This document shows, piece by piece, positions 1,490-63,043 of a stretch of DNA of 64,000 nucleotides. The stretch is from Eledone cirrhosa (Eukaryota): positions 361,584,001 through 361,648,000 of the forward strand of contig OZ024743.1 of assembly GCA_964016885.1 (NCBI GenBank). The letters run 5' to 3'. The number at the start of each line of letters is the position of its first letter. Position 1 is the first letter of the stretch. The position numbers were made by a program, and so were the translations under genes. The notes below the pieces were generated by a model. The model was given only the letters and a program-made list of their open reading frames with translations. It made no database searches and was not told where the DNA came from.

Positions 1490-1945
1490 AGGTATAGGAT
1501 TACCCAAGATGTAGTAATGGTTAATTACTACACTGGATATGGTTGACGTACGGTGAGAGGTTACTCTACGAGTTATGGAAGAATTGTTGAAGAAACTTAG
1601 TTCCTGATCCTTCTGTATTCCGGAGTGTATATAAAGAATTAATAATAACAGGTAGACATCATAAAAAGGTAATTTATTCCGTATGCTTACAAATGTTTCC
1701 ACGGTGGTACTACAGCCTAGTTATGTGCAAATCTACAACTATTTGCAGAACTCTAATATCCAATGCTGTGACCACTGTATCCTGAGGATACAGTGGTCAC
1801 AGCATTGGATATTAGAGTTCTGCAAATAGTTGTAGATTTGCACATAGCATAACTAGGCTGTAGTATCACCGTGGAAACATTTGTAAGCATACGGAATAAA
1901 TTACCTTTTTATGATGTCTACTTGTTATTATTCATTCTTTATATA
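1490..1945. repeat. Fold-back cassette: tail 1490-1627 plus near-perfect palindrome 1628-1945 centred at 1784, inside (TA)n
   Basis: Arms of about 155 bp, with one 5-bp indel and a few substitutions; centre gtatcct-g-aggatac; (TA)n on both sides. Confidence 0.92.
1782..1894 (+). ncRNA. Hammerhead motif with extended stem II
   Basis: CTGAGGA (1782) - 85 nt - GAAAC attt GTA (1874-1885); the 5' strand of stem I is disturbed by the fold-back. Confidence 0.6.
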
Positions 1946-2123
1946 TATATATATATATATATATATATATATATATATATTCTTTGCTTAAACTTTAATC
2001 TGTTATTTTAATAAATAAATATATATATATATATATATATATATGTATATATATAATATATATATATATATATATATATATATATATATATATATATATA
2101 TATATATATATATATATATATAT

Positions 2124-2372
2124 AGTGGTAGAACACTGGAAGGTAATATCCGTAGTGGTAGACCACTCCGTCCATGGGAAGAGTAAGGTAGAACTGATTA
2201 CACAACAGTTAGTTCACCATACCGAGAACAATTGGTTCACCTTAGCGGATCCTCAGCTCGTAATGGACATGGTTATACTATGGTATAACTATGTCCATTA
2301 CGAGCTCAGGATCCGCTAAGGTGAAACAATTGTTCTCGGTATGATGAACTAACTGTTGTGTAACCACTTCTA
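2124..2372. repeat. Fold-back cassette: tail 2124-2188, arms 2189-2278 and 2283-2372, inside (TA)n; two opposed hammerhead motifs
   Basis: Minus 2223-2260: cgag CTGAGGA tccgctaaggt GAAC caattgtt ctcg. Plus 2301-2338: cgag CTCAGGA tccgctaaggt GAAAC aatt GTT ctcg. Confidence 0.88.
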
Positions 2373-2755
2373 TATATATATACATATATATATATATATA
2401 CATATATATACATATATATACATATATATATATATATACATATATATATATATATATATATATATATATATATATATATATATATATATATATATATACA
2501 TATATATATATATATATATATACATATATATATATACATATATATATATATATATATATATACATATATATATATATATATATATATATATATATATATA
2601 TATATATATATATATATATATATATGTTCTATATTAAGTTGAGCCAACTTATACAGCTTCACATGTAAATGAGATAATCACCTCATTTACACTGACAAAA
2701 AACTACATATTTTCGCCTGTTTTCAAAGTTCGGCAGTTGTTAGAGCGGAAGAGAT

Positions 2756-2795
2756 CATCCTGACGAGTACCAGTTCAGATCGAAATGCATCGATG
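2756..2795 (+). ncRNA. Type I hammerhead ribozyme motif
   Basis: catc CTGACGA gtaccagttcagatc GAAA tgca TC gatg; same family as 1001-1047. Confidence 0.7.
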
Positions 2796-2990
2796 TTTGT
2801 CCCCTTCGGTTCTGTCGAGCACCGCATGGTGGCGTTACCTTCCAGTGACATTCATAGCTATGGATTTCTGAAGGTTTATTTATACACATACCATATTTCT
2901 TCAGAAATACGAAATTCAAACACACACACACACACACACACACACACACATATATATATATATATATATATATATATATATATATATATA

Positions 2991-3155
2991 GTAATAATAA
3001 TAAATTTGAAGACTAAAATCCAAAGAGGGCTCGATAAGGATAAATATATATCAAATAAATAAGAACCGTAGAGCAAATATATATTAAAATAACAGATTAA
3101 AGTTTAAGCAAAGAATCACTGCTTTCACCCTTAACGGGATCTTCTGAAACTAAAA
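2991..3155 (-). mobile_element. PLE pLTR/tail-like repeat with degenerate hammerhead; inverted copy of 5420-5594
   Basis: Reverse complement of 5432-5594 (ctgaagatcccgttaagggtgaaagcag..ttcggattttagtcttcac); ends at (TA)n. Confidence 0.7.
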
Positions 3156-59088: not shown

Positions 59089-59189
59089 TATATATATATA
59101 TATATATATATATATATATATATATATATATATATATATATATATATATACTCGTATATATATATTTATATGTGTGTGTGTATGTGTAT

Positions 59190-60772
59190 CCCTGCGGAAA
59201 GCAGCATTGGCTTATGCCGACGATGTGACCGTAATGGTGCCGAAAACCTTGGAAATTGGGGTGATCGGCAAATTATTTCAGGAATACGAAACATTGACGG
59301 GCGCAGAACTAAACGCTAACAAGTCTGTTGGTTTGCAACTCGGCACATGGAGAGGCAAACCGTCCGACAGCCTCGTTGCACGCTGGATGGAAGAACCAGA
59401 GAAATTGCTCGAGGTCTGGTTCGGTCCAGACCTCCAGGTGGATAAAAACTGGAACGAGGTTACGACGAAGCCATTTGCACTCACCCAGAAGTGAGATGAG
59501 TGCAAATTCTCCTTAAAAGGTCGAGCTGAGATGGCAAACACTTACATAGCGTCCGTCATCTACTACCGCTTGACGGTTGTGACTTGTCTCCGTGATCACT
59601 TCGCCAAAATGGAACGTCTACTCTTCAAGCTACCAACAAATTTATAACGGTGGGCTGGGCATGCCTTGGTTGATAATGCGCAAACACACGCGCTGAGGCT
59701 ACACCATCTCCATGTGTTCCTGACCGGTAAACCAGTGTGGTCGTCGTTCGTGAGAGAAGCTGTTCCACAGCTCATCTCGCTAACGGAGCTGCAGTCCTGG
59801 GTCAAGCGGAGACCGAAAATGGTCGCCTGGTAATATTAGTGCACTCATGCGCTCCAGTCATCTTCCGAGCGGAAAGGGCAATCAGCGGAAAATTCACGTT
59901 AACATTCTATTTGGGATTAGTGGAGGATGAGTGCGACGACGTTCACGGGGAAACTCTAAGCATGGAAGAGGACGAACTGGCCAGTCATTTCGGGAGGACT
60001 TTCCGTCCAGAGTCTGTAGATAACTTCCAGACATCTCTGGTCTGACAGTGCTACCGAGAATCCCTATCAGTTGGAGACAAAATCTACAAGCATAGATGCC
60101 CTGGCAGGGATTCTGCCAAAAGGACCTGTCCGAGATGCGAGCAGGACATTGAAACCGTTCTGCACGCAATTGTTCAGTGCTTAGGGATGGCCGATCTGTG
60201 GAATTATGTCGAATAACTACAGTGAAGTGTGGGACAAATCCAGTTGTCAGCCGAAACCATCGTGGGAATCACCCTGTGGCCTTCATTTAACAATGAAGGA
60301 GATGCGGTTTTGTTCTGTCTGGTGGCTATGGCAAAAGAGGTAATATGGTCGACGAAGTTGAAAGTACTGAGGGCAAATACCTTTCTCTCGGGACAACTCA
60401 TCCCTTATTTAAATACCACTTCAGAAGGAAGGTGAGAGTGAAGAGAGAGGTGCTTCATCCCAGTAAATTCGCTGAAAGGTGGATGAATGTAGTGAAAATG
60501 GCCCGAGTGAATGGGTCTTCTCTATATATAAATTTGTAGGCTGAAGAAGACAGAAGAAGGAAGACAGGAACACATTCAAAACGTACTCCTGGTGTTGAGG
60601 GTTGTTCTATCTGCGCAGTGTAAAACAACCCGCAGTAACGTCGATTGTCATTTTATTATAATATATAGTTTATATTAATTTATTAATGTTAAAGTTTACA
60701 TAATTTTAATGTAAAACCTCCGCTGTCATGTAATATCACATTTCTGTGCACCCTTGTGGCAAAGAAAGAAAC
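59190..60772 (+). mobile_element. L1/Tx1-clade LINE 5'-truncated copy, close relative of copy 1
   Basis: AYADDVTV..GAELNANKSVGLQLGTW..FGPDLQVDKNWNEV; CPRCEQDIETVLHA; 3' UTR matches 5700-5860. Confidence 0.9.
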
Positions 60773-62054
60773 ATATCTATCTATCTCTCCCCCTCTCAGT
60801 CGCTCTTTCTTTCATATTACTCAACCACACATCTAATCTGTGTATGCATTTATCTACATATTTATAAGCGTGACCGATAAATAATTTATGCTTTCATTCA
60901 CTATCATTTTACTTTTTCCTACTGTCATTCATACCCTGTAATTTTTCTGTTTTCTTTGATAGCCGACCACATCTAAACCATCTATTTACCGTGACAGCAA
61001 CTGTACATACATAACTAGTTATTCAATATATTCACATGAACAAAATAAGAGCACTAAATAAATATAGTAGTATGAAATATATATATAAACTAATATATTC
61101 CGTAACAATGCCAAACATTAATCAGAGGATAAACTGTACAAGTTTCTAGAATATATTTTATATACGTGGAGTGTATCCCGTAGAGAATTTCAGATATAAA
61201 AATGACAAAAGTTGAATAGCTGGATACAAGTAAATTTTGAGGGTGTGTTAAAATAATGATGGTGAGGGACTTAAAATGAGCATATTGACTATTCTCCCTG
61301 AAGGAGTATTTACGAGTATAAGTAGGAAGTGATTCCTCATTGAAATGTCTACTCAAAATGCAATATAGAAACTCTTCCTCGTCATGATGTATTAACAAGA
61401 TCGGTATATAAGACTCTACATACACACACGTAGATACACACGCACACATATAATGTCTTTTTTCTGTGTGTGGTGGAGTACCAAGTTACAAGCATCTCGT
61501 GCTAACTTTGATAGGGATATGGTAGTTTGCTATTTTCCTCCCCTCTCTTTCTTTTTCGCAATAGTGTTGACGAAATGTTCAGTGGTTAAGCATCAGCTAT
61601 TTCTAGCTACCTATGTAAGTATCTATTTTCAGAAAATAAATACATAAATACAGTTATATATCTATATATCTATATATCTATATATATATATATATATATA
61701 TATATATAACGAAGGAAATGTGGTAAGGAACCAGGTGGACCATAACGCACCAAAGTACTCAATACTTAGGTAGTAGATATAATATTAGATATAATACAAT
61801 ATGTTGATTCAATACACTGGTGGTTTTTCCCTGTTTGAATGATGGCGCACTATCTCTCTCTCTAGTGAGTTATCTTTTCAACATATTGTATTATAAAGAG
61901 CTCGGGATTCCTTCTCCTTTGAGACAGGGAATAGCGTGAGTCTATGGCTCCGTTAATTTATCGTGATATATATATATATATATATATATATATATATATA
62001 TATATATATATATATATATATATATATATATATATATATATATTTATATATATA

Positions 62055-62407
62055 TTTAAGTCGTTTGGAAGCCTCGACAATGCAAATGGGTAAATCTCCG
62101 GGTAACAAGATCCGGTGGTGGAGAGAGAGATGTAAGTGGGTGTACGTTGAGATGCGTGGTGTGTAAAGATGTGTAAATGTGTAGAAGAAAGAAGGGAAGA
62201 GTATGAAGGATAAAATAAAAATTCTTCTACACATTTACACATCTTTACACACCACGTATCTCAACGTACACCCACTTACATCTCTCTCTCCACCACCGGA
62301 TCTTGTTACCCGGAGATTTACCCATTTGCATTGTCGAGGCTTCCAAACGACTTAAAAGATATTTATTTATTATTCCACAATGCTTCAAGCAAACATCAAT
62401 ACTCTCA
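62055..62407. repeat. Fold-back cassette: 135-bp arms 62055-62189 and 62222-62356, 32-bp spacer, short tail, TA runs on both sides
   Basis: One mismatch seen between the arms; no clear hammerhead core. Confidence 0.92.
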
Positions 62408-62753
62408 TATATATATATATATAACTATTTACTCCTCCTCTCTCTACCTAACTGTCTATCTATGTGCCTATTTATCTGGTTATCTATATATTTGTCTGTC
62501 TATATTTGTTTGTCTACCAGTCTATCTGTATTTATGCCTATCTACCCATCCATTTACCTATCAATCCACCTATCTACCAAACTATTATATACCTACCAAA
62601 CTGTCTATATATCATTCTTACCTGTCTACCTATATATATATATATATAAGCAAAGAGATATTTAAATTGCTGGTAATTCAACAAATTTATTTATAACAGA
62701 TTCGAAGCACTCCACAAGTTTCCTAGAGTATAGATATTAATAAATGGAAACTG

Positions 62754-63043
62754 TATTTATAAAACCATATTTGTTTTATTATATATATTTCAAGGGTACC
62801 AAATTTTGGTACGCTCTCATCAGATAAAATACAAAATTTGTTTTATAAATATTACCAGCTTGAATAATCAGTTGTACTAATCTTTATATCAGTTCCAAAC
62901 GGAACCTGAACCAATAATGTCTGGTTTATCGGGTATGTCACTATTTATAAAACAAATTTTGTATTTTATCTGATGAGTGCGTACCAAAGTTTTTTGGTAC
63001 CCTTGAAATATAAATAATAAAATAAATATGGTTGCATAAATAT
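62754..63043. repeat. Inverted repeat with arms of about 100 bp and two opposed hammerheads (minus 62774-62829, plus 62964-63022)
   Basis: ttttat CTGATGA gagc gtaccaaa atttggtac cctt GAAA tatata TA ataaaa. Confidence 0.88.

Follow-up and report, generated by a model that had tools for sequence, protein, structure and literature searches.

We analyzed a window of 64,000 nucleotides of the genome of Eledone cirrhosa (assembly GCA_964016885.1, contig OZ024743.1, positions 361,584,001 to 361,648,000 of the forward strand), in which nine inverted-repeat cassettes, named C1 to C9, are set between (TA)n tracts and match the termini of Penelope-like elements (PLEs). The evidence used throughout is the assembled genome sequence. 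At all nine sites one outer end of the inverted repeat lies on (TA)n and the other continues into a unique tail of 51-140 bp and then into a second (TA)n. The tail-less end is 0-1 bp from the tract in eight cassettes and 7 bp from it in C9. The asymmetric layout described in an earlier note on this DNA is thus found everywhere it had been indicated, including the site given there as probable (C9, here 62649-63063), and one arm does meet (TA)n directly.

Cassettes of the window and their abundance

The features are listed below. The direct arm is the one that runs into the tail, signed positions are those of the reference unit of the family, and copy numbers are exact matches of a tail or arm-end pattern across the genome (14 to 5009 per family). 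A genome DNA search with the arm and tail of C3 gave no candidates and exact patterns were used in its place.

1490-1627, minus strand: C1 tail, 140 bp, 296 exact copies of a tail 22-mer; Hydra-like family
1628-1945: C1 arms, which meet at the 5' edge of the hammerhead core
2124-2188, minus strand: C2 tail, 65 bp
2189-2372: C2 arms, a full-length hammerhead with one core change in each; 1809 exact copies of TA plus arm end
32984-33150, minus strand: C3 inverted arm, intact hammerhead core at 33082 (minus strand); 5009 exact copies of TA plus arm end
33151-33317, plus strand: C3 direct arm, beginning at the hotspot of stops at -185, with an intact hammerhead core at 33219
33318-33405, plus strand: C3 tail, 88 bp, 2244 exact copies
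48286-48407: C4 arms, without recognizable hammerhead; they join about 25 nt behind a TATA-like box present in the parent element
48408-48487, plus strand: C4 tail, 80 bp, 599 exact copies
48540-48645, minus strand: C5 tail, 106 bp, 502 exact copies; from a 3.12-kb Hydra element
48646-49200: C5 arms, retaining both halves of a hammerhead core and a long stem II but no stem I pairing
56814-57398: C6 arms, opposed hammerheads with cores at 56978 (minus) and 57239 (plus)
57399-57513, plus strand: C6 tail, 115 bp, 14 exact copies; tandem unit without open reading frame (ORF)
57572-58925, minus strand: C7 inverted arm, 1.35 kb, with pseudo-long terminal repeat (pLTR), hammerhead at 57721, 3' untranslated region (UTR) and the endonuclease end of a Hydra ORF at 58694-58924
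58926-59088, plus strand: C7 direct arm (50 bp) and tail (113 bp), 1573 exact copies
62056-62406, plus strand: C8, inverted arm 62056-62221, direct arm 62222-62355, tail 62356-62406 (51 bp), 102 exact copies
62649-63063, minus strand: C9, tail 62649-62732 (84 bp) and arms 62733-63063, old and diverged, with opposed hammerhead motifs; 191 exact copies

The tail pattern of C2 has only 2 copies in the genome and its arm end was counted instead. In C7 the palindromic arms proper occupy 57573-57622 and 58926-58975. The 82-nt spacer of C6 is sense sequence of the direct arm, the 32-nt spacer of C8 is inverted-arm sequence, and the C8 tail overlaps the start of an ORF. Over the palindromic spans the arms of the nine cassettes are 79-100% identical (BLAST). 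No two cassettes are linked by any BLAST match, and to this extent they are the unrelated sequences that the earlier note took them for; the ORFs of the C1, C5 and C7 parents are nevertheless related. The description of the cassettes as ORF-less has to be amended too, the inverted arm of C7 retaining 77 codons of endonuclease end, 55% identical to residues 701-778 of the C5 protein.

Our own scan for inverted repeats recovered all nine cassettes and a tenth at 15400-15516. Beside the latter, 15533-16150 is an inverted pair with hammerheads at 15707 (minus) and 15973 (plus), with related pieces at 52776-52898. Another inverted pair, 2991-3152 with 5431-5593, has both outer ends on (TA)n (a symmetric type), a hammerhead core at 5438 and a 37-bp fragment at 1981-2017. 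A tail of the C4 type, lacking its pLTR arm, stands against a TA tract at 61709-61777, and 46835-48225 contains nested PLE end fragments in TA tracts, among them three copies of a 45-bp end and a tail of the C7 type (48129-48225).

For an estimate of density we took 32 stretches of 10 kb at round coordinates of the first 14 contigs (320 kb). They contained 27 cassettes, 0-4 per stretch, that is one per 11.9 kb; scaled to 3.0 Gb this gives about 250,000 cassettes, a rough figure coming from a small and non-random sample. The density of one per 7 kb proposed before is above the sampled mean, but the idea of a process acting at genome scale is sustained, both by this sample and by the recurrence of the families as exact copies genome-wide. 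In the same stretches the outer end was within 12 bp of (TA)n in 42 of 75 inverted repeats, compared with 250 of 9234 random positions, so that the association with (TA)n is well above background. Specifically for C3, a TA run followed the tail immediately in 30 of 30 loci, short or interrupted in a few.

Parent elements and hammerheads

Elsewhere in the genome six of the families continue into PLE ORFs, five of them Hydra or Hydra-like and one of the canonical type with reverse transcriptase (RT) and GIY-YIG endonuclease. With arms and tails matching PLE termini and TA tracts flanking them, the derivation of the cassettes from PLE integration targeted to (TA)n, as the earlier note had it, was borne out. 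In tandem copies the C3 tail leads into the 5' UTR, and from there into the Hydra ORF, of a unit of 3885 bp whose RT-endonuclease frame is frameshifted. The reference for this unit (locus L043) contains two internal duplications of about 220-230 bp, at -1273 to -836 in the ORF end and at -638 to -216 in the 3' UTR. The C5 unit, of about 3120 bp, has open frames of 781-782 codons (L083, L084). In L273 the C1 tail continues into an ORF 61-75% identical to the C5 protein, and C7, which has a tandem spacing of about 3560-3580 bp, is linked to an ORF in L282-L284; over matched stretches the frames of C1 and C7 are 53-77% identical to C5. The C2 arms are continuous with a more divergent Hydra-like ORF in L329, L342 and L344 (27-32% identical to C5 over matched stretches). 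Partial tandems that form pLTRs, with the tail continuing into the region 5' of the ORF, were seen for C3, C5, C7 and C8.

The Hydra clade is characterized by RWK/RW and DKT motifs, a CxCX5C linker, CxxC and CxH around a conserved E and N, a hammerhead near the end and a (TA)n target (PMC8557442). The C3 and C5 parent frames gave no RT or GIY-YIG match in Pfam or PDB (weak matches to 14-3-3 and DUF1428 were ignored). Their RT (YRDD) and endonuclease motifs nevertheless agree with those of the Hydra alignment, and they have the CxCX5C linker and the CxxC and CxH that flank the conserved E and N, with no CCHH. C5 has RWK and DKT, and C3 has DKT with RWT replacing RWK. By eye both proteins resemble Hydra-1_Obim, and by these motifs the two parents carry the diagnostics of the Hydra clade. 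Neptune, our first guess, was dropped on applying the definition in section 11 of PMC8557442. A fragment of Hydra-like endonuclease frame, 34% identical to the C5 protein, is also found at 13495-14071.

The C8 parent, with a tandem unit of about 3210-3520 bp, matched RVT_1 of Pfam above the cut-off (E 4.5e-11) and reached 22.5 bits for GIY-YIG, the cut-off being 22.6. By eye L297 and L299 show DKG, which departs from the Hydra criterion, GxKF and CCHH, and a linker with no clear fit to CX2-5CxxC. [quoted passage not shown] C6 is an ORF-less unit; 4 of 14 loci (L101, L104, L107, L113) contain it in head-to-tail repeats with a period of 479-494 bp, and no ORF followed its tail in the loci read. 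In this it is like the non-LTR retrozymes.

A descriptor of our own for type I hammerheads gave 8 matches in the window against a mean of 0.1 (maximum 1) in 20 shuffles, and 5 of the 8 were inside cassettes; an Rfam search of the window returned no hammerhead family at E<=1. By inspection, full-length motifs, intact or with one core change, are present in both arms of C2, C3, C6 and C9. In C1 the hammerhead is cut at the 5' edge of the core, C7 has it in one arm only, and neither descriptor nor inspection found one in C4 and C8. The type I features (CUGANGA and GAAA cores, stems I-III, NUH site) were recognized by descriptor in C3, C6 and C7 and by eye in C2 and C9, only partly in C1 and C5, and are missing from C4 and C8. 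Predicted folds of C3 and C9 show stems I and II, with z of -1.1 and -3.5. Two opposed hammerheads had been called usual; the motif is indeed enriched over shuffles, but the opposed pair is found strictly in 4 of 9 cassettes, and in 6 of 9 if parts are counted. C5 (48646-49200, L082) keeps both core halves and stems II and III, but beyond the cut site the strand is paired with 8 nt of the stem II insert rather than with the bases before the core; this hammerhead is possibly rewired or inactive. The common stop of C5 at -151 falls within it. Other hammerheads of the window are a well-formed one at 47047 (minus strand), with a 12-bp stem I among nested PLE fragments, and those of two single-arm copies in opposite orientation, 900-1092 and 2699-2917, 71% identical to each other.

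Outer ends, arm lengths and the origin of the inversion

Each family with a reference unit has two fixed outer ends, A at the end of the pLTR and B at the end of the tail, 40-140 nt downstream (C3, -15 and +73; C5, -30 and +76; C8, about +12 and +51). In C3 and C5 both A and B coincide with a native TA or AT, with which the end released from a cut TA tract could pair over 2-3 nt. We collected C3 insertions anchored at A. From the first 100 ends listed 88 were taken, of which 70 were resolved and 18 were left unresolved (diverged subfamily or single arm); the 12 outside this set were 2 partner ends, the pair L137/L138, 5 mapped earlier (all A-B) and 3 not fetched. The far end was B in 68 of the 70 and A in 2. 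A third A-A pair, L137/L138, is outside that count, and a few B-B forms exist. The outer arm end is therefore fixed per family, at TA/AT, and the inner junction varies, the combination that had been put forward as a check of the earlier proposal.

Arm lengths were measured on the 63 simple A-B insertions of C3 (5 complex ones were excluded) and, for C8, on the 23 of 35 copies that remain when 12 without a full inverted arm are set aside. The inverted arm of C3 was the longer one in 32 insertions and the shorter in 10; in the remaining 21 the two arms agreed in length to within 10 nt. In 7 insertions the arms do not overlap at all, and hence there is no palindrome; several of these are 95-100% identical to the reference, with junctions of 0-4 nt. 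C8, belonging to a different clade, gave the same picture (inverted arm longer in 14, equal in 3, shorter in 6). In the window itself the inverted arm of C7 extends 1.35 kb, into the endonuclease frame, against a direct arm of 50 bp, and that of C8 is also the longer.

These counts bear directly on the mechanism offered by the earlier note, a snap-back in which the complementary DNA (cDNA), begun at the tail end, turns back and serves as its own template as far as the TA at the pLTR/tail border. On this view unequal arms would have to come from later deletion. A fold-back copy is limited to the sequence of the tailed arm, and longer inverted arms or arms without overlap rule it out wherever they occur. 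Unless later deletion is called upon, simple fold-back is thus excluded in about half of the insertions; the other half would be compatible with it. Deletion is a poor rescue, since it has no reason to favor one arm 32:10. Besides, C3 inverted arms stop at -184 whatever the partner arm does, and A-A and B-B insertions exist. On the side of the model are the TA at the border, an earlier proposal that head-to-head PLE palindromes arise by self-priming, there with an antisense template (PMC3846280), and the 21 symmetric C3 insertions, 8 of them centered on a native 6-bp palindrome at -185. The stop sequence being self-complementary, two copies that end there can pair, and this gives the perfect palindrome of the window without any fold-back. 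Snap-back is rejected as the general route, and overall we consider it improbable.

Our analysis indicates instead that the cassettes, which are truncated insertions of PLEs and of a gene-less dependant into (TA)n, are probably formed when both cut strands prime reverse transcription at two fixed sites of the RNA and the cDNAs are joined head to head. The GIY-YIG endonuclease would nick both target strands, and the free TA ends would anneal by 2-3 nt, one at A and one at B. Both cDNA copies would then extend towards the 5' end of the RNA, and short microhomology, the addition of a few bases or further template jumps would join them. With somewhat less certainty, both polymerase sites may be on the same RNA, and the short near-perfect palindromes may be formed when both copies run off the same RNA 5' end. 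With simple fold-back set aside for about half of the insertions, the counts provide a testable model of two sites and two strands, with named start sites and elements with open frames (L083, L084). The junctions vary between overlaps and insertions, the latter as long as 55 nt, and additional pieces of the element are included in some of them. L252, L021, L024 and L035 have junctions with pieces from distant parts of the element, which suggests template jumps during joining.

The lengths of the cassettes go from about 130 bp to more than 6 kb, graded up to full-length ORF-bearing copies with the same outer ends, and most junctions are unique. The short palindromes could otherwise be self-contained mini-elements, similar to miniature inverted-repeat transposable elements (MITEs) or to retrozymes, copied whole from a few masters; identical junctions do recur (the 8 at -185, two more pairs in C3, and L335/L336 in C2) and C6 is an ORF-less tandem unit. 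Apart from the graded lengths and mostly unique junctions, the asymmetric ends are unlike terminal inverted repeats and the -185 junction is also found in a diverged subfamily (L132), so that this explanation looks very improbable. A MITE or foldback DNA transposon in the strict sense was rejected: the tail is one-sided and the lengths span the whole range just given, when symmetric terminal inverted repeats and uniform length would be required. AT-rich palindromes beside microsatellites are hard to assemble, and fold-back chimeric reads at TA repeats might in principle mimic cassettes; we find such an artefact barely credible when the arms diverge by up to 21%, the ends are base-exact in thousands of loci and many insertions are not palindromic.

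In C3 both arm types stop preferentially at -160 to -210 (34 and 26 of 63), and inverted arms do so at -184 independently of the partner arm. In C4 the inverted arms cluster at -72 to -84, about 25 nt behind the TATA-like box (one reference was BLASTed against all loci with rough de-duplication, and arms below about 30 nt are undetected in these counts). The stops of both families suggest run-off at a transcript start. Hammerhead cleavage as main cause of the stop point was rejected, because both arms end at the predicted cut (-60) in a single C3 insertion out of 63 (L171).

The two arms of a C3 insertion tend to be long or short together (long/long 15, long/short 3, short/long 2, short/short 43; Fisher p 8e-10). 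The arms within one insertion differ by 1.1 changes per 150 nt (range 0-6), against 5.4 between insertions (39 pairs). Direct arms that stop at -6 to -40, beside site A, numbered 11 of 63, compared with 3 of 63 inverted arms of like length (p 0.044, with bins set post hoc). Coupling, shared haplotypes and direct-arm stops by A point, less certainly than the two start sites, to one shared RNA. If two RNAs were used, one per subunit, with A or B set by the strand end, the fixed ends, the unequal arms and their overlap without strand displacement would be accounted for as well, and arms that are not always identical would be natural. The length coupling, the shared haplotypes and the direct arms ending at or before A are what one template would be expected to give, and we hold two-ended priming on two RNAs to be unlikely.

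Several observations weigh against two-ended priming, on one RNA in particular. In 31 of the 63 C3 insertions (arms equal or direct arm longer) snap-back fits too, and later deletions in unstable palindromes could have shortened one arm. An inverted arm is lacking in 11 of 35 C8 copies, and several C3 copies are an A arm alone, so joining of the second end is not obligatory. Coupled lengths and shared haplotypes could also result if a single source locus dominated at any one time, or if one arm had been converted by the other, and TA-rich microhomology is an alternative for the direct-arm stops beside A. In C3 no TATA box was found where a start at -184 would place it. Of 24 arm ends at the -184 stop, 11 have a G in front of it; for no fewer than 8 of these the native C at -185 or the partner arm could have been the template, and we did not use the G as evidence of a cap. 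Regarding the parents, the C4 tail runs into the start of a Hydra-like ORF at one locus only (L304), judged by eye, and no continuous ORF link was found for C9 in 20 of its 191 copies, taken with 1.5-kb flanks.

With all this, we see even chances that two-ended priming on a single RNA is the normal way of PLE integration, a dimeric RT-endonuclease holding one transcript at sites 40-140 nt apart and extending both strands together. If so, a single reaction would explain the tail, the inverted pLTR and the stops of many tailed arms at the second start site. In two PLE clades and a retrozyme-like dependant it would have left this genome with hairpin-forming stubs estimated at a quarter of a million.

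Relation to known systems and other features of the window

An inverted pLTR with a one-sided tail, (TA)n targeting and opposed hammerheads are already published; the elements are new, their kinds and layout are known. Insertions of endonuclease-containing (EN+) PLEs are described as a 5'-truncated copy with an adjoining inverted 5'-truncated copy, a tail at one end, partial tandems and palindromic junctions (PMC8557442, PMC3846280, PMC8969392). Compared with these accounts, the tails here are of 40-140 bp where 30-40 bp are described, short stubs dominate (about one per 12 kb sampled), and arm lengths have been measured on 63 and 23 insertions. How the tandem and inverted structures of PLEs are formed is named as an open question in PMC8557442. 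The C3 and C5 parents have the motif set and the (TA)n target in common with the Hydra clade. They are part of at least five families with units of 3.1-3.9 kb, in a clade given as "generally <3 kb", and Eledone families have tandem and inverted pLTRs where Hydra-1_Obim is listed without pLTR (PMC8557442). The long stem II hammerheads of C1, C5 and C7 are a further difference. In the minimal type I hammerheads of PLE pLTRs stem III is short and palindromic, and pairs on opposite strands 100-700 bp apart have been noted (PMC4209133). Animal non-LTR retrozymes are ORF-less tandem units with a hammerhead (10.64898/2026.07.22.740005); to these C6, retrozyme-like in its sequence, would add the two-ended inverted layout.

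The closest biochemical data, with which the model fits, are those of PAc, a Poseidon PLE of Anolis. In vitro this predicted dimer cuts both strands and extends them, and it has two internal start sites on the RNA that bound the tail (PMC11167929). An AT-rich target is shared, tail-bounding start sites and the cutting and extension of two strands would be shared under the model above, and hammerhead cleavage was dispensable there. We found in that account no assignment of the two sites to the two target strands or to an inverted copy, and PAc is reported to start without homology, whereas the Eledone elements have TA/AT homology at both start sites (PMC11167929). In the literature searched, which covered few subscription journals, we found no paper proposing two-ended priming for PLEs.

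A comparable process is the twin priming of L1, which Ostertag and Kazazian are said to have described in 2001, with the second nicked strand priming on the RNA and the inversion joined by microhomology. The second site of L1 is reported to be variable and the pieces not to overlap, whereas the PLE sites here are fixed and close and the arms mostly overlap; in Eledone PLEs the two-ended form is, besides, the common outcome.

If the sample holds, the stubs are a large source of inverted repeats, about 250,000, that annotation could misfile as MITEs or as hairpins resembling microRNAs. The Rfam search of the window returned sub-threshold matches of this kind. In the main text of a 2026 repeat annotation of Octopus vulgaris the strings "palindrom" and "hairpin" are absent (PMC13282606).

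Close to C9, 63092-63946 is a tandem duplication with a period of 479 bp and 95% identity. The regions 5802-8467, 59192-60610, 18044-18726, 50686-52000 and 24584-26310 we take to be repeat debris, with frames resembling those of long interspersed nuclear elements and, in 24584-26310, a Helitron-like look.

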